Numbered from the stretch's first letter, positions 46,072-54,107 are shown. The stretch: 64,000 nt of DNA from Patescibacteria group bacterium (GCA_040388415.1 JAZKBV010000002.1:63383-127382), one strand, 5' to 3'. Numbers and translations are program-made. The notes: a model not told the origin generated them from the sequence alone.

Positions 46072-47076
46072 CTACCGCACAAAGGCCTTTTGTTCAAGGC
46101 GGTCCAAAACGGCGCCAAGGGTCGATTCTGAGCCAGTTATAATGAGCTTTGAATTGTCGATAAATGAGTATAGGAAGAGAACTGTATCGTTTGTTATGAA
46201 TTCGCGGACGTCCTTGTTGCGTAGGATACGATCAGTGAATGAGCCGTGGACTACAGTATATAGTGAAGCGTCTTTATAGAAATATTGCTTCAAGTCATCT
46301 GCCATGACATTTTCCCACTGAAGCATGCCTGAAAATGCATTTTGGAAATAGTCGACTGTTGCGATGATGAATACGTCTTTATTGCCCTGTTTATCAGCAT
46401 AAACGCCGAGCATCCAGTTGTTCGCAAGTGCCCTCAACAGTACGTCTGGGGCAGTGATATCCATTGTAGATGCTATTGTAGGTCCGCTTACACGGAATCG
46501 TTGTCCATCCGTGCTTTTAACGAGGATTATTTCTTTTATCGTATCATCTGCTTGTGGCTTTGCGATCTCGTCTCTAATCGCATTTATGATTGCAGTCGGA
46601 CTCATTGAATCAGTTGAAATGGTGATTCGAGAATCAACTGGTACGATCGACGTGGGCACAGGTGCTTGAACCTGCGTTTTTGTGCCACTGGTCGCGAGAG
46701 GGCTGATGCTGTAGAAATAATACGCGCCTCCGATTCCTCCACCTATCAAAATAATGCCAGCGAGAGCAATAAGAGTTTTTTTGACCGTTTGTGTATGGTC
46801 AGCTTTATATTCTATTGATTCTGCTGACTCCCCAAGGTTATTTTGACCCGTGCTTTTCTTTTGTTCAGCAAGAGCAATGGTGGCCGTTGATATTTTCTTG
46901 TGTGCAAGAACGTCCGCCACATCGCTTTCGTATGTGCGTAGAGCCTTTTGAGGGGTTTCTGTGACGTGTGGAGGATGCGCAGGTTCAGGCGAATTTGAAG
47001 TTGGCCCAATATCTTGGCCTGTTTGTACAGGAAAATCCTGTGGTGCTAAAGAAGGATTTTGATTCTCTTCGTTCAT
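46072..47076 (-). CDS. hypothetical bitopic membrane protein
   Basis: Pro/Gln-rich cytoplasmic N-terminus, one TM helix (LIALAGIILIGGGIGGAYYFY), and a ~200-aa extracytoplasmic domain. Confidence 0.45.
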   Translation of the reverse strand: MNEENQNPSLAPQDFPVQTGQDIGPTSNSPEPAHPPHVTETPQKALRTYESDVADVLAHKKISTATIALAEQKKSTGQNNLGESAESIEYKADHTQTVKKTLIALAGIILIGGGIGGAYYFYSISPLATSGTKTQVQAPVPTSIVPVDSRITISTDSMSPTAIINAIRDEIAKPQADDTIKEIILVKSTDGQRFRVSGPTIASTMDITAPDVLLRALANNWMLGVYADKQGNKDVFIIATVDYFQNAFSGMLQWENVMADDLKQYFYKDASLYTVVHGSFTDRILRNKDVREFITNDTVLFLYSFIDNSKLIITGSESTLGAVLDRLEQKAFVR

Positions 47077-47094: not shown

Positions 47095-49293
47095 TTAAAA
47101 TCTTTTTTTGTATTCAGGCTTTGGTGGTCGTGGCATCTCTTCTCTCTTGGTGAATTTGTTTGGGTCTGCCTGCTTGATGGAAAGGTTGATTCTACCCTTT
47201 TCGTCAACTTCTTTGACGACAACAGGTACTTTATCGCCTTCTTTTATATATGTTTCGACACGTTCGACACGGAATGGAGCTATCTCTGAGACGTGGACGA
47301 GGCCTTCTGAGTTCGGTCCTATCTTTACGAATGCGCCAAAGTCCATGAGTCGTGTCACTTCCCCATCAAAACGCTCGCCTGGCTTATATTCACGCGTCAT
47401 ACCGTAAATAATATCCTTGGCCTTTTGTGCTGTTTCATTTTTTCCTGTGATAAATATAGAGCCGTCATCTTCTATAGTTATATCTTCTACCTGAGTTGAA
47501 TCTTTGATCTCATTGATTGTCTTTCCGCCAGAACCGATAACAAGACCTATTTGATCGGGCTTGATCTTCATAACGATTATTTCAGGCGCATTTGGATTGA
47601 TCTTCGCTCTCGGTACAGCAATAGCCTTTTCGATAACATCAAGGATTGTGAAACGTGCATTTTTTGCTTTTTCAAAAGCTTCAGCGAGTATTTTCAAAGG
47701 GATACCGCCAACTTTCACATCCATTTGTACGGCGGTGATACCGGCGCGCGTGCCTGCCACCTTGAAATCCATATCGCCATGATGATCTTCTGGCCCCTGA
47801 ATGTCAGTGAGCACTTTGTACTCATAGTTCTTGGCGCCGAAAAGTTTACCGATGACTCCTGGCTTTGCTTCACGCATCATGAGACCGCTTGCAATACCAG
47901 CGACTGGAGCTTTGATGGGAACTCCTGCATCCATAAGCGCAAGAGTTGAGCCACAGACTGAACCCATTGAGGTTGAGCCATTTGAAGCCATCGCTTCTGA
48001 AACGATACGGATAGTATATGGAAATATATCTTTTGCAGGAATTACCGGTACCAAAGCTTTTTCAGCGAGAGCGCCGTGACCGATCATGCGACGGTTCGTA
48101 CTGCCGACACGACCTGTTTCACCAGTTGAGAATGGTGGAAAGTTGTAATGGTGCATGAAACGCTTGTTTGCCTCTGCTGCCATACCGTCTATGACGAGTG
48201 CATCGCCAGGACTACCTAATGTAAGGGCAGAAAGGATATGTGTGCCTCCGCGATAAAATATTCCAGAACCGTGCAACATAGGTGAAATACCACCCGCTTG
48301 TGCAAAGAGGGGGCGAACTTGGTCAACGGTGCGTCCATCAGCACGTTTTCCGTTATCAATCGCCTCCGCATGCAACAGTTCATTAACCGCTTCTTCAAAA
48401 ACTTCTTGAGCCATAGCTTTATTGCCTTTATGTTTCACATCTTCGCTACAAAATTTCTCCGCAAAGAGTGCTGACCAGATAGCATTGATCTCATTGATAC
48501 GATTGTGGCCAGGAGTACCGCTCATGATGTATTCAGCAAGCTTCGGTTTTATTTCGGTATCAAAAAGCTCAACTGTGCCAGGAGTTGGTTCAGGCAATTT
48601 GACTTCAGTTTTTGGTTTGCCAATCTCTGCGATGATCTGCTTTTGCCATGTTTGAATCTTTTCAATCTCTGCACTTGCTCGTTCCAAAGCTTCGTTGAGT
48701 AGATCCTCACCGACTTCATGACTCGCCACTTCTATCATATTGATCATGCCGTCTTTACCACATGCCACAAGCTCGAGGTCTATTTTTGCTTCATCGCGCG
48801 CTGCATAATCTGGGTTGATAAACCAGTGGTGATCTTTTGCTATACGAACAGCCGAAGCGGGTCCATTCCATGGGATACGTGAAACACTGAGGGCTAGTGA
48901 AGCAGCGATGACTGAGAGTACATCTGGATCATCTTGATCGATAGAGAGTGTAGTGACGATGACTTGGACCTCGTTGCGGATTTTCTGATTGAACAGAGGG
49001 CGGATAGTACGGTCAACGATACGACCAGAGAGGATGGCTTCAGTTGAAGGCTTTCCTTCTCGACGGACGAAGCGTGAGCCAAGGATGCGGCCAGTGGCGT
49101 AAAAACGTTCCTCAAAATCAACGGTGAGTGGAAAAAAGTCACCATCTCTCATGTCCCCCATGACTGCTGTGGCGAGGACTGCGGTATTTCCGTAACGGAC
49201 GATGACCGAACCGTCTGCCTGGTCCGCGAGGTCGTTGAATTCTGCTGATAATATCTTGCCGCCGATCTCGAGAGAGTATTGTTTTGAAATCAT
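47095..49293 (-). CDS. pnp: polyribonucleotide nucleotidyltransferase (PNPase)
   Basis: 732 aa with two RNase PH-like domains, then KH and S1 domains (…ERFDGEVTRLMDFGAFVKIGPNSEGLVHVSEI…). Confidence 0.93.
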   Translation of the reverse strand: MISKQYSLEIGGKILSAEFNDLADQADGSVIVRYGNTAVLATAVMGDMRDGDFFPLTVDFEERFYATGRILGSRFVRREGKPSTEAILSGRIVDRTIRPLFNQKIRNEVQVIVTTLSIDQDDPDVLSVIAASLALSVSRIPWNGPASAVRIAKDHHWFINPDYAARDEAKIDLELVACGKDGMINMIEVASHEVGEDLLNEALERASAEIEKIQTWQKQIIAEIGKPKTEVKLPEPTPGTVELFDTEIKPKLAEYIMSGTPGHNRINEINAIWSALFAEKFCSEDVKHKGNKAMAQEVFEEAVNELLHAEAIDNGKRADGRTVDQVRPLFAQAGGISPMLHGSGIFYRGGTHILSALTLGSPGDALVIDGMAAEANKRFMHHYNFPPFSTGETGRVGSTNRRMIGHGALAEKALVPVIPAKDIFPYTIRIVSEAMASNGSTSMGSVCGSTLALMDAGVPIKAPVAGIASGLMMREAKPGVIGKLFGAKNYEYKVLTDIQGPEDHHGDMDFKVAGTRAGITAVQMDVKVGGIPLKILAEAFEKAKNARFTILDVIEKAIAVPRAKINPNAPEIIVMKIKPDQIGLVIGSGGKTINEIKDSTQVEDITIEDDGSIFITGKNETAQKAKDIIYGMTREYKPGERFDGEVTRLMDFGAFVKIGPNSEGLVHVSEIAPFRVERVETYIKEGDKVPVVVKEVDEKGRINLSIKQADPNKFTKREEMPRPPKPEYKKRF

Positions 49294-49356
49294 AGTAATT
49301 ATAATGTAGCAAGAAAAGAGGTGTAGCGCATCTATAGATGTGATAGCATATTCATT

Positions 49357-49854
49357 ATGAATACAAAGAAAGTGCTCGGAGTTGATATTGGCAACGTTAT
49401 TATAAATAACCGTCTCAATGATCCTGAAGTCAATGAAGTTGATGAGGCTGTTTACGCCGCTTTTCCTCCGTCGGAGGGCGTATTTGAGGCATTGAAGATT
49501 TTAAATGATTATTTTGATGGCGAGGTTTATCTGATCTCAAAATGTACTGAGTGGGCACAAATACAAATTTTGGCATGGCTCGCTACGCATGATTTTTATA
49601 ATAAAACAGGCATTAAACCAGAACATGTTAATTTTGTGAGAAAACGCAACGAAAAAGATGCCGTCTGTATAAAATTAGGGGTTACGCATTTTGTCGATGA
49701 TCGTCTGGAAGTCTTGGGTTATATGGTCGAATCAACACCAAACCTCATTTTGTTTCAACCAGATCAAGTGGAGATGGAGGAATTTAAACAGTTTTTGCCC
49801 CACGTCACTGTCACCAATAACTGGAACGAGGTTGTGAAACAGATTATTAAATAA
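49357..49854 (+). CDS. hypothetical protein; weak resemblance to NT5C-type HAD-like nucleotidases or RNase-H-fold (YqgF-like) proteins
   Basis: N-terminal VLGVDIGNVII (hhGxDxG-like), VYLISKCTEW, and HFVDDRLEVL. The HAD motif I is degenerate (DIG instead of DxD). Assignment uncertain. Confidence 0.35.
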   Translation: MNTKKVLGVDIGNVIINNRLNDPEVNEVDEAVYAAFPPSEGVFEALKILNDYFDGEVYLISKCTEWAQIQILAWLATHDFYNKTGIKPEHVNFVRKRNEKDAVCIKLGVTHFVDDRLEVLGYMVESTPNLILFQPDQVEMEEFKQFLPHVTVTNNWNEVVKQIIK

Positions 49855-49864
49855 TTTTGAGACA

Positions 49865-50773
49865 ATGAAAGCAGAATCACAGCCAGTGTATGACGTGCTC
49901 CCCCAAGAAAATAACTTGGTGGAAAAATATCACCCAAAATTTCTTGCTTGTGGCGGGGATCATTTGGTTTATGAAATTCCTGAGCACCCTGATGTTGTCG
50001 TCAAAGCATCAACATTCAGGATTAAAGATATTTTGGTGGATAATGCCGAGCATGGTGTTCCGCTCGACTCACTTTCAGATGGTATGAGAGAGTTTGTCGG
50101 TACTGAATTGAAAGAAAAAGACGAACAGTCGAGAAATTTGAGAAATTATTTTGGTAATGAACATACGCTGGCAGAGCGACGTTTTCTTATGAAAGTTCCT
50201 GTAACAGGAGAAATAGTAGCTGACATTTTCAAAGATGACTGGAAAGGGCGAGTGCCACCAGAAGATTCTTTAAATATGAATGAAGCCTGGTCATCTGTTA
50301 CTGTTCAACAGCGTGCAGAGGCCATCAATGATCCAAAGCATCTAAGTCTCAATTTCGAAGGGTTTCTCGAGGAAGATAAATATGATGATACGGCTATACA
50401 GCATATTCTTACTTTGTCTGAAAACAACCCTGCTCTCAGGGACTCTCTAAAAGAATTTGTTAGTAAGGCAGTTTCATATGCCAATGAAACAGGAAATATT
50501 CTTGCTATGGCCGGAAAGGATAACATTATCTTCTATAAGGATCCTGAAAATGGTGAGAAATGGAATTATTTGCTCGTTGACGCACTTTCTATCCACAATG
50601 AACCCGTCTTCAAGGTCGCGCAGGAAATCTCATTGAAGATAATAAATGGTGAGAAAATAACTCCGCATGAGCAGACACTTTTGATGAAAGCCCTAAATTT
50701 CACGAGGACAATAAATAATATTGCGTCTGCACTCGGTATGAGTGAGCATTTGGGTTTACAGACAGAGTTGTAA
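49865..50773 (+). CDS. hypothetical protein with protein-kinase-like fold features
   Basis: Gly-rich loop plus Lys (FLACGGDHLVYEIPEHPDVVVKAS). Putative catalytic segment ILAMAGKDNIIFYK. Putative metal-binding WNYLLVDALS. Atypical order of catalytic residues. Confidence 0.35.
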   Translation: MKAESQPVYDVLPQENNLVEKYHPKFLACGGDHLVYEIPEHPDVVVKASTFRIKDILVDNAEHGVPLDSLSDGMREFVGTELKEKDEQSRNLRNYFGNEHTLAERRFLMKVPVTGEIVADIFKDDWKGRVPPEDSLNMNEAWSSVTVQQRAEAINDPKHLSLNFEGFLEEDKYDDTAIQHILTLSENNPALRDSLKEFVSKAVSYANETGNILAMAGKDNIIFYKDPENGEKWNYLLVDALSIHNEPVFKVAQEISLKIINGEKITPHEQTLLMKALNFTRTINNIASALGMSEHLGLQTEL

Positions 50774-50779
50774 TTTTAC

Positions 50780-51304
50780 TTACAAAGAGAACCCAATCTT
50801 CTCTTTAGGCTTCTTCTCCTCAACGGTCAGATGTTTCAGTACGTTGAATATCTCATAAATGTGCTTATCGTACTTTCTTTCCATTTGTTCAACTTTTTCT
50901 GCAAGTTTCTTATTTTCAGCCAGTATTTCACGAAGTTTTGTGAAGGTACGAATGATCTGGATATTGACTTGGATCGCGTGCGGGCTTTTGAGAACGCTCG
51001 AAAGCATAGCGACACCTTGTTCAGTGAAAACGGTAGGTGAATACTTGATATTCTCACCTCTTTTCAAGGTCACAATTTGTGACCTTGGACGTTGCTGATA
51101 GTAAAGAATAGTTTCTTGTGGAGATAATTTAAACATAAAATCTCCAGGGAATCTTTCAAGATTTCTTTTGACTGCTTGATTTAAGACTTTCGTTTCTACC
51201 CCATATAGCTCAGCAAGGTCTCTATCAATTAGTACTTTTTTACCCCGGATAAAAAATATCTTACTAAGCACAGTCTCATTTGGAATCGTTACTAATATAT
51301 TCAT
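50780..51304 (-). CDS. ORF6N (KilA-N-related) DNA-binding domain protein
   Basis: The N-terminal ...KVLIDRDLAELYGVETKVLNQAVKRNLERFPGDFMFKLS matches the ORF6N domain commonly found in phage anti-repressor-like proteins. C-terminal coiled coil. Confidence 0.6.
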   Translation of the reverse strand: MNILVTIPNETVLSKIFFIRGKKVLIDRDLAELYGVETKVLNQAVKRNLERFPGDFMFKLSPQETILYYQQRPRSQIVTLKRGENIKYSPTVFTEQGVAMLSSVLKSPHAIQVNIQIIRTFTKLREILAENKKLAEKVEQMERKYDKHIYEIFNVLKHLTVEEKKPKEKIGFSL

Positions 51305-51587
51305 TATTTTTTTGTGTATTATTCGGTAATGATTTTTTACCTTTTATTTTAATAGCTCCAGTTTTTATTCTTGTCCTCTTATTTACTTTTATCGCACTTT
51401 CGTTCTCTGGTGGTGTTACATCAATAAACTTCGCACCCATCGATTCAAATTGCTTGACAAAGAACCAGTGTATCGGAGGTATGACCTCATTACATGATCT
51501 GCAGATGTATGTAGATTCGTCTACAACTATTGGATTCTTACAATCATGCCAACAACCAGACTTGTTGGTCTTTGTATTTTTACCCAT
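51276..51587 (-). CDS. hypothetical small Cys4 zinc-ribbon protein
   Basis: CWHDC...CRSC motif, with a Lys-rich C-terminus. Overlaps the ORF6N gene start by 29 nt. An antisense ORF 51280-51591 (+) is considered spurious. Confidence 0.35.
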   Translation of the reverse strand: MGKNTKTNKSGCWHDCKNPIVVDESTYICRSCNEVIPPIHWFFVKQFESMGAKFIDVTPPENESAIKVNKRTRIKTGAIKIKGKKSLPNNTQKNNEYISNDSK

Positions 51588-51783
51588 ATAAATTTTTAGT
51601 TAACTAACAATTAATAAATCATCCCGATTTCCCTCTTCCTGCAAAATAGATCGCCATACGGCTTATCCGTACCATTGCGTAATGTAATAATTGTACCAAA
51701 CAAAAAAATCTCGAGAACTTCCGTTCTGAGATTTTCTGTTTTCTAGTAGCGTAATTTTTAGAAATTAGACAGTAAGAAATTCT

Positions 51784-52317
51784 CTATTGATTCCCTCTCC
51801 TGTTCCCTCCTGACCTGAGCAAATATTTTGCTGGTTCCTCGTCGAGATCCATGAAATGGTCTGCGACTTCAATGAGTTTTGATGATGTAGATTTGCCGAA
51901 TGAAACGACTTCTACCTGACACCCTTGGTTCATCTGGAGATATTCGACGAGCGGACAGAAGTCCCCGTCTCCGGTGAGGAGAATGACTGAGTCGAGCTTT
52001 GGAGCGAGTTTGACGGCGTCGATAGCGAGACCGACGTCCCAATCAGCCTTCTTTGCGCCAGAACTGAAGATCTGTAGGTCTTTGACCTTTGTCTCGATAC
52101 CTACTTTGGTGAGAGCGTCAAAGAAACCGGTTTCATCACCTGATTCTGTTGATATAACGTACGCGACTGCGCGAACGAGTTTGCGGCCGTCGAGAGCATC
52201 TTTGACGATGGCCCCGAAATTGACCTTTGAGTGGTAAAGATTTTTACCGCTGTGATAGAGATTTTGTGCATCGATATAGATACCGACGCGTTGTTCTTTG
52301 TGTTTGATTATAGACAT
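51784..52317 (-). CDS. NYN-domain (LabA-like, PIN-like) protein
   Basis: VGIYIDAQNLYHS..., AVAYV, and VILLTGDGDFCPLVEYLQ match the NYN/LabA fold with acidic residues. Confidence 0.75.
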   Translation of the reverse strand: MSIIKHKEQRVGIYIDAQNLYHSGKNLYHSKVNFGAIVKDALDGRKLVRAVAYVISTESGDETGFFDALTKVGIETKVKDLQIFSSGAKKADWDVGLAIDAVKLAPKLDSVILLTGDGDFCPLVEYLQMNQGCQVEVVSFGKSTSSKLIEVADHFMDLDEEPAKYLLRSGGNRRGNQ

Positions 52318-52390
52318 AAAAAATGTGAGTTAACTAAATTTGTATTAAAAAGGTTATTGATTTGTAAATGACCTTACTACGCTAAGTATA

Positions 52391-52416
52391 AACGAAAATT
52401 GGCTTGTCGCCAATTT
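52391..52416 (-). terminator. putative terminator downstream of rpsO
   Basis: AATTGGC-ttgtc-GCCAATT perfect 7-bp hairpin with a short U-run on the minus strand. Confidence 0.4.
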
Positions 52417-52422
52417 GTCAGA

Positions 52423-52689
52423 CTATTTCTTGAGATCCAACTTCTTGATGATAGTTGCGTAACGCTTTGGGTTACTTTTCTTCAAATAGACGAGGTGAGA
52501 CTGGCGATCAGCAACCATACCGAGGAGACCACGGCGTGAGTGGTTGTCTTTCTTGTGCTTACGGAGGTGTGAAGTAAGCTCATCAATGCGCTTGGTCAAA
52601 ATAGCGACCTGAACTTCAGGAGAACCTGTGTCCTTGTCGTGAATTGCTGTTTCTTTGATGATTTTGGTCTTTTGACGTGTGCTTAACAT
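52423..52689 (-). CDS. rpsO: 30S ribosomal protein S15
   Basis: 88 aa: ...GSPEVQVAILTKRIDELTSHLRKHKKDNHSRRGLLGMVADRQSHLVYLKK..., the S15 consensus. Confidence 0.9.
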   Translation of the reverse strand: MLSTRQKTKIIKETAIHDKDTGSPEVQVAILTKRIDELTSHLRKHKKDNHSRRGLLGMVADRQSHLVYLKKSNPKRYATIIKKLDLKK

Positions 52690-52828
52690 AGTTGAAACAT
52701 CATAGCATGAACCGTGGAGAGGTGCAAGTTTCTTATTAAAATATGGTTTAAGTCGTTTTTGAATATAGTAAAACCCGATTCACACTTATTACAACCACTC
52801 AGTGCGTTGTTCGTGTGAATCGGGTTAC

Positions 52829-53110
52829 AAGGGCTGGCCGCCGGCGGTTAATGCGGAATATGATTGCCGGTGATGGGCGCGCCGTTGTTGGGGCCGGAAT
52901 TTTTCTCGGAGTGCGTGTTGAGGTTAACAGGCGGGTCGTGGGTCTTCATGGCTTATAGCCCTTTCTTTGGATGTGACGCAAGCAAGGCCTGCGAGCGTCG
53001 TCGTTTACCGCATGCTTTTTACAGCATGGAATAATCCTGATGGTCAGACCTGTCCCTAGCATGGACGAGAGGTTCCTCAAAGATCATTCGCTGTGTATCA
53101 TAGCACACCC
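52829..53110. other. GC-rich (~55-60%) non-coding segment with long-range complementarity; candidate structured RNA or foreign DNA remnant
   Basis: Composition contrasts sharply with the ~40% GC flanks. AAGGGCT (52829-35) pairs with AGCCCTT (52957-63). Local hairpins (catgctttttacagcatg; palindromes gccggc and ggcgcgcc). A flanking 14-bp perfect hairpin at 52763-52827. No ORF of 60 aa or more on either strand. Confidence 0.3.
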
Positions 53111-53168
53111 ACAATATTTGTCAAGTATTCTAAAATATGTCTTGATTTTGTAGCTTAAAATCCGTGCA

Positions 53169-53177
53169 TGCTACAAT
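53169..53177 (+). promoter_or_regulatory. extended -10 element (TGcTACAAT) 6 nt upstream of the xerD ATG (leaderless pattern)
   Basis: tgctacaat, then ataccc, then ATG at 53184. Nearly identical in architecture to the ruvA promoter (tgctataat ctaccc ATG). Confidence 0.35.
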
Positions 53178-53183
53178 ATACCC

Positions 53184-54107
53184 ATGTCGCACAATCTCAG
53201 AGACCTGAAACAGCAATTCCTCGAATATATTGAGATAGAACGCGGTCGCTCCGTCAAAACCGTTGAGAACTATGATCGTTACCTCACTCGCTTCCTCAAC
53301 TATTCAAAGGCAAAGTCACCAAGCGATATCACTGAAAATGTTATTCGCGAGTTCCGTCTGTGGCTCAATCGTCAGCCAGCCAGTGAAAATAGCAGATCGA
53401 CCGCTACGCTCAAGAAGAAAACGCAGAACTACTACCTCATTTCCTTGCGTGCCTTCCTCAAGTATCTTGCAAAGCGTGGAGTTAAGGCTGTTTCACCCGA
53501 ATATATTGAGCTCGCCAAAGTTGGCGATCGTCATCTCGACCTCATAACCAAAGAAGAGCTCTCTCGCCTGCTCAAGTCGACTGACGGTGATGATTTGAGG
53601 TCTATGCGTGACAAAGCTATCCTCGAAACACTCTTTTCTACTGGTCTGCGTGTATCTGAGCTCTGTTCCCTCTCTCGTGATATCGACCTGTCGAGTGATG
53701 AACTCTCTGTTCGTGGTAAAGGTGAAAAGATCCGCGTGGTTTTCATGTCAGATGAAGCAAAACGCTCCATCAAGCGCTATTTGGATAAGCGTCCTGATAT
53801 TGACGGTGCCCTTTTTGTGAAGATCTCTGGTGAAGAACGAAAAATGAAAGAAGAGGATCTCGGGCTCTCAACGCGTCAGATAGAGAGAATCATCAAGCAT
53901 TACGCTATCAAAGCGGGTATTTCAAAAAAAGTGACACCCCACGTCATTCGCCATATGTTTGCCACTGACCTTCTGGGTAATGGTGCTGACCTCCGTTCAG
54001 TACAGATGTTGCTTGGTCACTCCAATATTTCAACGACACAGATTTATACGCACGTGACGGATAGTGAGCTGAAACGAGTACATAAGCAGTTTCATAATAA
54101 GAAGTAA
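53184..54107 (+). CDS. xerD: tyrosine recombinase XerC/XerD family
   Basis: Phage-integrase N-terminal SAM-like domain (FLEYIEIERGRSVKTVENYDRYL), catalytic R...HxxR...Y: ...HVIRHMFATDLL...LLGHSNISTTQIYTHV. Confidence 0.85.
   Translation: MSHNLRDLKQQFLEYIEIERGRSVKTVENYDRYLTRFLNYSKAKSPSDITENVIREFRLWLNRQPASENSRSTATLKKKTQNYYLISLRAFLKYLAKRGVKAVSPEYIELAKVGDRHLDLITKEELSRLLKSTDGDDLRSMRDKAILETLFSTGLRVSELCSLSRDIDLSSDELSVRGKGEKIRVVFMSDEAKRSIKRYLDKRPDIDGALFVKISGEERKMKEEDLGLSTRQIERIIKHYAIKAGISKKVTPHVIRHMFATDLLGNGADLRSVQMLLGHSNISTTQIYTHVTDSELKRVHKQFHNKK

Follow-up and report, generated by a model that had tools for sequence, protein, structure and literature searches.

Comparative analysis of a 64,000-nt stretch of DNA from a Patescibacteria group bacterium (GCA_040388415.1 JAZKBV010000002.1:63383-127382, hereafter the window) indicates that rpsO, encoding ribosomal protein S15, and a gene for a NYN/LabA-like predicted ribonuclease (NYN) form a conserved two-gene unit, and that the spacer between NYN and the polynucleotide phosphorylase (PNPase) gene pnp is occupied by a variable, mosaic set of accessory genes. 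Taken as a whole, this reading of the locus is one we consider likely. Five open reading frames (ORFs) lie between rpsO (52423-52689, minus strand; Pfam Ribosomal_S15, E 5.5e-32) and pnp (47095-49293, minus strand; Pfam RNase_PH, KH_1 and S1). NYN, a zinc-ribbon gene (Znr) and a gene for an ORF6N-domain protein (ORF6N) share the minus strand with rpsO and pnp, and only orfA and orfB lie on the opposite strand. The original prediction for this locus, made from the sequence of the window, had correctly placed five genes on both strands between rpsO and pnp. It had read them as one inserted islet of defence, addiction or phage origin, or as containing a nucleotide-salvage pair, that interrupts an rpsO-pnp linkage. 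Homologues of all five were found elsewhere: more than 327 proteins for orfA; 595 cluster representatives for orfB by exhaustive profile search (about 600 clusters at 50% identity); and at least 8000 relatives for NYN at E ≤ 1e-10, of which the best 120 clusters were all at least 84% identical.

rpsO and NYN as a predicted core unit

Two independent samples of relatives were compared. The first comprised 80 genome loci picked through PNPase, in which the proteins of the window were placed by tblastn, and the second comprised 80 metagenome loci picked through NYN itself. Gap sizes were taken from the tblastn coordinates. The order rpsO-NYN-pnp was found in 70 of the 80 genome loci. In five of the other ten, pnp lay too near a contig end to tell, and in none of the ten did rpsO adjoin pnp within the available DNA. 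rpsO was directly upstream of NYN in every metagenome locus with room for it (72/72). The distance from rpsO to NYN stayed short throughout the genome loci (12-558 bp, with a median of 118), and pnp lay within 7 kb of NYN in 28 of the 42 metagenome loci with full room. Mean identity to relatives was 67% for NYN, 63% for S15 and 58% for PNPase, and the GC content of NYN (47.6%, and 51.7% at third codon positions) was like that of rpsO and other core genes.

The premise that rpsO is directly followed by pnp is inapplicable here, as NYN intervenes in 70/80 genome loci. Nor does NYN belong to the islet, from which it is excluded by its lineage-wide conserved order and its housekeeping-like conservation; it is best regarded as a lineage-wide core gene lying outside the insertion. 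On rpsO-pnp spacing and order in relatives, the check that the original prediction had proposed, the five genes divided: conserved order with housekeeping-like conservation was found for NYN and not for the other four. These data suggest that rpsO and NYN, in that order, are an ancestral and invariant two-gene unit of a Paceibacteria-type lineage of Patescibacteria, usually followed by pnp. The nearest PNPase loci with informative names belonged to Parcubacteria/Paceibacteria groups, for example Taylorbacteria, Nomurabacteria and Kaiserbacteria. No published account of an rpsO-NYN(-pnp) unit was found in literature searches for such an operon, and the observation appears to be new, in line with an older prediction from gene neighbourhood.

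NYN (51784-52317, minus strand) matched the Pfam NYN profile (PF01936) over its whole length (positions 1-145 of 145; 119.7 bits against a cut-off of 24.2, E 1.9e-34). It also aligned over its full length with the LabA-like structure PDB 2qip (VPA0982; E 2e-27), to which it was 35% identical in the multiple alignment. Residues D16, D92, D94, D100, D117 and D119, assigned to a PIN-like metal site, were invariant in 19 lineage members and 2qip (20 sequences), and the protein is predicted to be a LabA-like PIN-fold nuclease with intact catalytic residues. Like other LabA-like NYN proteins (PF01936, COG1432; 2qip), it is a single domain of about 175 amino acids that keeps all of the conserved acidic residues. 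It differs from them in that its gene is fixed beside rpsO, and usually pnp, across a class-level lineage, and in that this gene is better conserved than its neighbours. The LabA-like NYN family has been tied by gene neighbourhood to tRNA and rRNA processing, and according to a 2017 review of the PIN superfamily no LabA-like NYN member had been assayed for nuclease activity (PMC5499597). NYN may well act in rRNA or mRNA processing as a housekeeping endoribonuclease alongside S15 and PNPase. We propose, tentatively, that it is a Paceibacteria-type housekeeping endoribonuclease working with S15 and PNPase, and that the rpsO-NYN unit is obligate for this reason. Candidate roles would be the maturation of 16S rRNA, or the initiating cuts for PNPase, with the transcript of its own operon among the targets.

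The original prediction had given rpsO its own terminator hairpin. A hairpin is indeed present 3′ of rpsO (52396-52416, minus strand), but it is weak, with an 8-bp A/U-rich stem, a folding energy of -10.6 kcal/mol (z = -2.1) and a poor U-tract. Its sequence is kept in the relative L082. It may be a leaky terminator or a processing hairpin rather than a strong terminator.

In the E. coli-type operon, rpsO is followed by a terminator hairpin, the pnp leader is processed by RNase III, and pnp is autoregulated. The locus studied here resembles that operon in several respects: rpsO and pnp are co-oriented and mostly linked, a hairpin follows rpsO, pnp is directly preceded by a structured element, and pnp seems open to expression through read-through as well as from upstream signals of its own. 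The differences are that a nuclease gene stands between rpsO and pnp across this lineage, that the strong terminator is 3′ of NYN and not of rpsO, that the NYN-pnp spacer is variable with pnp unlinked in about one third of loci, and that neither an RNase III site nor a long leader is apparent.

The NYN-pnp spacer as a putative hotspot

In the genome loci the gap between NYN and pnp spanned -7 to 4179 bp and exceeded 600 bp in 25 of 70; in the metagenome loci it spanned 21 to 5309 bp. The 66 ORFs in the large (>600 bp) genome-locus gaps gave 60 singleton families. Their Pfam content was mixed (DUF475/TerC, TrmB, PIF1 helicase, PRPP synthetase, LexA, NUDIX and SET domain, among others), and when the gap cargo from other genomes was searched for defence genes, only scattered candidate matches were obtained.

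Differences in cargo were also seen among close relatives. Loci L174, L176, L177 and L178, with NYN 97-100% identical to that of the window, have an empty site of 52-61 bp that holds a strong terminator and GTTACATTACAyAA before the pnp ATG. L175 (NYN 97% identical) carries a Znr homologue, a DUF3800 gene and a PNP_UDP_1 gene divergent from pnp, and ERZ1426819, whose NYN protein is the same as that of L175, carries four small ORFs and TrmB. In L082 (97%) the gap holds orfA, orfB, a 61-aa ORF and ORF6N. L081 and ERZ1426600 (89%) have orfA, orfB, TrmB, a methyltransferase gene and Gcw_chp, and L192 and L195 (87-88%) have ORF6N directly after NYN, followed by other genes. The NYN-pnp spacer is, judged by these comparisons, a hotspot for accessory genes. 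The four genes in the window are a strain-specific patchwork, an ordinary kind of genome variation.

The spacer from the strong NYN terminator to the start of pnp may act as a safe harbour, in which inserted genes would disrupt neither flanking unit. Cargo would be gained, lost and swapped, probably via recombination between the conserved flanks. The locus shares with known chromosomal integration hotspots between core genes its conserved flanks, its empty, occupied and differently occupied states among close relatives, and its low-GC, mosaic cargo. It differs from them in its very small size (0-5 kb), in having no tRNA, integrase or repeats, and in a cargo made up mainly of assorted metabolic and regulatory genes and not of defence systems.

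Extent, edges and signals of the islet

The islet proper spans about 2.4 kb (49357-51780) and contains four genes, Znr, ORF6N, orfB and orfA. Its GC content of 37.5%, against a mean of 43.9% for the window, was the lowest of all 2.4-kb segments (z = -3.2), and its tetranucleotide deviation (z = +3.1) was the highest, reached by no other segment of that length. Of the two signs of insertion that the original prediction had suggested looking for, compositional deviation was thus borne out for the four-gene segment. The other, flanking repeats, was not: no direct or inverted repeat bracketing the islet was found, and no repeat pair flanked 49300-51780. An inserted segment remains a sound description of the four genes, which are variable and deviant in composition and whose site is empty in L174, L176, L177 and L178, but it does not extend to NYN. 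Neither are the genes one module, as they assort independently among relatives. The islet is best described as a mosaic of three independently assorting modules, namely Znr, ORF6N and orfA-orfB, because these occur separately, with orfA-orfB in L081, Znr in L175, and ORF6N in L192 and L195.

The NYN-side edge of the variable segment is a strong intrinsic terminator after NYN (51702-51734, minus strand), consisting of a stem and U7, with a folding energy of -20.1 kcal/mol (z = -4.7). A homologous hairpin with U7 is present in the occupied relatives L082, L175 and L060, and the empty-site relatives have a different but equally strong hairpin with U7 after NYN. At the pnp side, the islet stops just short of a conserved TTGCTACATTA motif, 9 nt 5′ of the pnp ATG. 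The junction was placed just upstream of TTG(C/T)TACATTA because this motif near pnp is kept in both empty and occupied relatives. Both flanking units look intact, as would be expected of a neutral "safe harbour". TTG(C/T)TACATTA occurs near both edges and was considered as a target-site duplication; this was rejected, as the motif is present before pnp in empty sites and is -10-like.

In the divergent pnp/orfA intergenic region (49294-49356), the pnp ATG is preceded at a distance of 9 nt by TGCTACATT (complement of 49303-49311), and the orfA ATG at a distance of 7 nt by TGTGATAGCAT (49339-49349). A leader common to occupied loci (51588-51701, minus strand) precedes Znr; it is 84% identical to that of L175 (over 95 nt) and 72% identical to that of L082 (over 132 nt), despite differing cargo. 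It contains an extended -10-like TGGTACAAT at 51690-51698, a small hairpin at 51657-51671, both arms of which are altered in L175 and L082, and a Shine-Dalgarno-like GAGGG upstream of Znr. A promoter role for this leader and for the pnp/orfA motifs is suggested by the motifs alone, and Znr would then be driven from a leader common to other occupied loci.

Extended -10-like TGnTAnnnT motifs were observed 6-9 nt upstream of the ATGs of pnp, orfA and the L175 PNP_UDP_1 gene, as well as at 51690-51698 and at equivalent sites in L174-L178 and L060. No Shine-Dalgarno sequence was evident at the short-spaced starts of pnp, orfA and the L175 PNP_UDP_1 gene. This suggests leaderless or very short-leader mRNAs in the lineage. 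A 30-nt repeat (D1) brackets NYN and not the islet, and matches similar regions upstream of the NYN and Znr starts. The palindromic TTAGTTAACT (D1/I1 core) lies 13 nt upstream of both of these starts (Znr, 51596-51607; NYN, 52326-52337), with degenerate versions at the same places in L175. It was not enriched in the window (5 found, 3.6 expected) and may be a shared regulatory or initiation element. orfB and ORF6N are convergent, with 6 bp between their stop codons (50773-50780) and no terminator between them, so their transcripts must overlap or collide.

The three modules

Znr (module 1; 51276-51587, minus strand) encodes a 103-aa protein with a CxxxC...CxxC arrangement of cysteines (C12/C16/C29/C32). 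An 82-aa ORF in L175 is 81% identical over Znr residues 1-73 and keeps all four cysteines, and Znr is accordingly taken to be a real gene. Past residue 73 the two sequences diverge. The C-terminal 30 aa of the window protein are unique and overlap ORF6N by 29 nt, and L175 continues into DUF3800 in place of ORF6N. The point of divergence looks like a recombination junction. Znr had no Pfam match and only marginal PADLOC and PHROG matches (E about 0.007-0.009). Our guess would be a small nucleic-acid-binding regulator.

ORF6N (module 2; 50780-51304, minus strand) encodes a 174-aa protein that matched the Pfam ORF6N profile (PF10543) in full (positions 1-86 of 86; 106.4 bits against a cut-off of 27.8, E 9e-31) and has a C-terminal coiled-coil-like tail. 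It gave full-length matches to three PADLOC PDC-S05 models, the best being PDLC04856 (E 7.5e-58; residues 2-171 against profile positions 2-174 of 177), and matched a PHROG anti-repressor family with E 1.3e-24. Full-length relatives, 92 in number and 40-56% identical, were found in IMG/VR viral contigs. In 36 of 80 fetched viral loci the relative had a neighbour in one tyrosine-integrase family, and other recurrent neighbours were Cro/CI-type helix-turn-helix (HTH), Bro-N and ArdA genes. This is the lysogeny and early-regulation corner of temperate elements, and the mobile-element association that the original prediction had given to this domain holds. The same site holds ORF6N in L082, L192 and L195, the L195 protein being 79% identical. 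The protein has the size and the C-terminal helical tail of its viral-contig relatives; it differs from ORF6N/KilA-N-type anti-repressor-like phage proteins in standing in a chromosomal hotspot, where no integrase, Cro/CI regulator or other phage gene accompanies it.

PDC-S05 is heterogeneous, with more than 40 models. A representative of RhuM type cut the plating of T7 and T5 about 1000-fold in E. coli (bioRxiv 10.1101/2024.09.26.614923); the protein in the window differs from that member in being of ORF6N type, and the ORF6N-type models make up a separate sequence group. ORF6N is predicted to be a DNA-binding protein of the kind found beside integrases and Cro/CI regulators, and is a PADLOC defence candidate (PDC-S05). 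It is conceivable, at rather low probability, that ORF6N, alone or with Znr, is a single-gene defence or regulatory element.

orfA (module 3a; 49357-49854, plus strand) encodes a 165-aa protein assigned by fold comparison as a HAD-fold, NT5C-like phosphatase-type protein. It had no Pfam match at E ≤ 0.1, NT5C and HAD models included, and no meaningful PADLOC, PHROG or NCBIfam match, and its family profile matched no PDB sequence at E ≤ 10. The AlphaFold model (pLDDT 94) has a Rossmannoid HAD fold. The best Foldseek match in the PDB was 3bwv, a deoxyribonucleotidase-like protein (E 1.4e-6, TM 0.68), followed by ThrH, dNT-2 and GmhB, with human dNT-1/dNT-2 among later matches. The HAD/NT5C-like fold had been guessed correctly in the original prediction, which also called the protein degenerate. 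That description is fair for motif I alone. Residues D10, G12, S61, K100, D114 and D115 are invariant in the orfA family. Motif I reads D10-I-G12 (DxG, not DxD), with G12 invariant in 50 sequences, so that the nucleophile Asp (D10) is kept and the second Asp, the general acid/base, is absent. S61 lies at the end of strand 57-62 (motif II), and D114 and D115 at the end of strand 111-114 (motif IV). Compared with HAD 5′(3′)-deoxyribonucleotidases (NT5C; 3bwv, human dNT-1/dNT-2), orfA shares the HAD core with a minimal cap, the nucleophile Asp, the motif II Ser and the motif IV Asp-Asp; it differs in the invariant Gly in place of the general acid/base Asp, in being 12-14% identical to solved structures, and in the lack of an NT5C/HAD Pfam match.

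orfB (module 3b; 49865-50773, plus strand) encodes a 302-aa protein with an atypical protein-kinase-like fold, as had been guessed. The structure is bilobal, with a Foldseek match to NleH1 (probability 0.97), and the closest folds are protein or atypical kinases (Bud32, RIO, OspG and NleH). No Pfam or NCBIfam kinase match was obtained (families such as Pkinase, RIO1, APH and Kdo were covered), ten sampled distant members were likewise without a Pfam kinase domain, and the family profile matched no PDB sequence at E ≤ 10. There were no PADLOC or PHROG matches, and an NCBIfam TruD match was dismissed (22 bits against a cut-off of 654). The invariant residues include K47, D219, N220 and D239, and G30/G31 are kept by at least 90% of sequences. 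K47 lies on strand 41-49 and D239 after strand 232-237, positions that would suit the ATP-binding Lys of strand β3 and the metal-binding, DFG-like Asp. The catalytic loop is an invariant G217-x-D219-N220, with no His and with Asn adjacent to Asp, and is not HxDxxxxN. Like the small atypical kinases (Bud32/KEOPS, RIO, OspG/NleH/HopBF1), orfB is compact and bilobal and has a Gly-rich loop, conserved in most but not all sequences; the placing of its invariant Lys and Asp may also correspond to theirs. Unlike them, it has no sequence-level match to any Pfam kinase family or PDB sequence, has a GxDN loop and a long helical insertion at residues 72-96, and is encoded with a dedicated phosphatase partner of HAD or His_Phos_1 type. 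One distant 705-aa member of the family (P0301) is fused to a ChaN/Tiki-superfamily (Cofac_haem_bdg) domain, the only fusion among ten long members.

orfA and orfB are paired in L081 and L082, and occur in reversed order in L084, where orfB precedes orfA with a 4-nt overlap. In L083, L179 and L180, a His_Phos_1 gene replaces orfA, 7-22 nt upstream of orfB. Since the kinase-fold protein keeps a phosphatase partner while the fold of that partner changes, orfA and orfB are best read as a kinase-phosphatase pair that would act on one substrate. They would make up a two-gene phospho-transfer unit, transcribed divergently from pnp, in which orfB and orfA most likely add and remove phosphate on the same substrate. 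The orfB family may be a new atypical kinase clade, always with a swappable phosphatase partner, forming a two-gene phospho-switch; like the proposal of NYN as a housekeeping endoribonuclease, this is a speculation that we think somewhat improbable. In L084 (2649-7565), the orfB-orfA pair adjoins two rve-family transposase genes and a gene for a 176-aa RhuM-type PDC-S05 protein, beside rpsT, so that the pair is also found where mobile elements are abundant. Treatment of ORF6N and this RhuM-type protein as one family was considered, and the two had no BLASTP similarity, so a recurrent three-gene module is unsupported.

A phage origin of orfA, orfB and Znr was rejected on scans of IMG/VR viral contigs, in which no relatives of orfB or Znr and only seven distant matches of orfA were found.

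Weighing of alternative explanations

Several points weigh against a core rpsO-NYN unit with mosaic cargo downstream. All relatives are metagenome-assembled genomes or metagenome contigs, with taxon labels that are often generic. pnp was missing from the 7 kb next to NYN in 14 of the 42 metagenome loci with full room, and for this reason the functional link of NYN with PNPase is weaker than that with S15. The direction of change, gain or loss, is deduced from composition and distribution. ORF6N directly downstream of NYN recurs in four loci (the window, L082, L192 and L195), and could thus be an older resident of the clade rather than a recent arrival. Finally, without the second motif I Asp orfA could be non-catalytic or perform unusual chemistry, and the same could be true of orfB without a canonical HxDxxxxN loop.

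The original prediction had suggested, as one reading, an inserted defence, addiction or phage-derived module. That the five genes, or the inserted four, form one anti-phage defence or addiction module (nuclease, DNA-binding protein, kinase and phosphatase) is quite unlikely, even with the full-length match of ORF6N to PDC-S05, the protection against T7 and T5 conferred in E. coli by a PDC-S05 representative (bioRxiv 10.1101/2024.09.26.614923), a domain-level match of NYN to the PADLOC NYN model (E 2.7e-14), and the orfB-orfA pair of L084 that adjoins a RhuM-type PDC-S05 gene and transposases. Across the lineage NYN is a core gene, present once and next to rpsO, the modules occur apart in relatives, and same-site cargo in other genomes is mostly non-defence. 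In PADLOC, ORF6N alone matched a defence-candidate model, with orfA and orfB unmatched in PADLOC and PHROG and Znr marginal. The PDC-S05 member that was tested is of RhuM type, and the RhuM-type protein of L084 has no BLASTP similarity to ORF6N. The findings give no support for a new defence system. It is also unlikely that the islet is what remains of a prophage or integrative element that entered between NYN and pnp and then decayed. Such a remnant would account for the low GC of the islet, for the viral-contig relatives of ORF6N with their integrase, Cro/CI-type HTH, Bro-N and ArdA neighbours and the PHROG label of anti-repressor, and for a XerC-like tyrosine recombinase gene 0.5 kb upstream of rpsO. 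That gene, however, occurs in nearly all relatives, those with an empty site as well as those with an occupied one, and so is not an islet integrase. The islet itself contains no integrase, transposase, structural or replication gene by Pfam and PHROG and has no att-like flanking direct repeats, which also speaks against a self-mobile element, and ORF6N is its only gene with more than distant viral-contig relatives. The gene-by-gene differences in cargo among close relatives are more in keeping with piecemeal recombination than with one integration event.

An assembly or binning artefact, that is, a chimeric contig with unrelated DNA between NYN and pnp, might be suspected from a metagenome-assembled source and a segment that differs in composition from its flanks. 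We regard it as extremely improbable. Proteins identical to those of orfA, orfB and NYN are on record from a 204,862-bp contig, and those of orfA and orfB from two sources; the independent assemblies L081, L082 and ERZ1426600 show the order pnp | orfA orfB ... NYN rpsO with proteins 72-88% identical; and at the flanking junctions the sequence has homologues in relatives. A different question is raised by the proposal that orfA-orfB is a nucleotide or nucleoside salvage pair beside pnp, through which a scavenging organism would route the products of RNA phosphorolysis into salvage. This narrows the reading of the orfA-orfB module and does not contradict a core unit with mosaic cargo; we consider it possible, but would not favour it. 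The best structural matches of orfA include 5′(3′)-deoxyribonucleotidase-type HAD proteins, the orfB homologue of L083 lies among genes for dCMP deaminase, HIT, two NUDIX proteins and SAM synthetase, the position divergent from pnp in L175 is taken by the PNP_UDP_1 nucleoside phosphorylase gene with a similar upstream motif, and PRPP synthetase and NUDIX are found among other gap cargo. On the other hand, the nearest folds to orfB are protein or atypical kinases and not nucleoside kinases, the partner can be His_Phos_1, which has no particular nucleotide link, the contexts in L084, L179 and L180 have no nucleotide-metabolism neighbours, and orfA is without the general acid/base Asp used by NT5C enzymes.

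Neighbouring genes

The XerC/XerD-like tyrosine recombinase gene (53184-54107, plus strand) is divergently adjacent to rpsO in most relatives and belongs to the core synteny, in which the order xth - xerC | rpsO - NYN is maintained. Between this gene and rpsO lies a self-contained cassette (52765-53124, minus strand) with a near-consensus promoter, TTGACA-16-TATGAT with TG (53124-53097), a conserved leader of about 140 nt, a 33-aa ORF (MKTHDPPVNLNTHSEKNSGPNNGAPITGNHIPH), and a perfect 14-bp hairpin with a T-run at its end (52772-52826). Its minimum free energy z-score was -2.6. The cassette is found in L174 (76% identical over 464 nt, with the ORF conserved) and is absent in L176, L177 and L082. 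It is a second presence/absence element flanking the rpsO-NYN unit. The cassette had no Rfam match at E ≤ 1, as was the case for the whole of 51550-53250, where the intergenic regions are without a known RNA family at that threshold. Rfam at the gathering threshold over the whole window gave tRNAs only.

Downstream of pnp, a 334-aa protein (46072-47076, minus strand) had no Pfam match. It is syntenic with pnp in most relatives, at 22-40% identity, and in close relatives the next genes after its own are a DksA/TraR zinc-finger gene and a Mg-chelatase/ComM-like gene. It is a conserved partner downstream of pnp, with a function unassigned by Pfam.

Implications

The baseline order in this lineage is rpsO-NYN-(variable)-pnp. 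Scans that flag an interrupted rpsO-pnp linkage would fire on every genome, and need recalibration. The NYN-pnp spacer offers a compact natural safe harbour from terminator to promoter, and its empty, occupied and swapped states among near-identical genomes may be useful for following gene flux in uncultivated Patescibacteria. The orfB family, for which there is no Pfam model, may represent a new kinase-phosphatase module together with its interchangeable partners of HAD or His_Phos_1 type. This is a lineage of reduced genomes whose RNA-processing enzymes have been little studied, and the invariant pairing of rpsO and NYN provides a comparative-genomic handle on LabA-like NYN nucleases. If NYN does act as proposed, a physiological role in bacteria would for the first time be assigned to the large COG1432/LabA-like NYN family, which is so far function-less.

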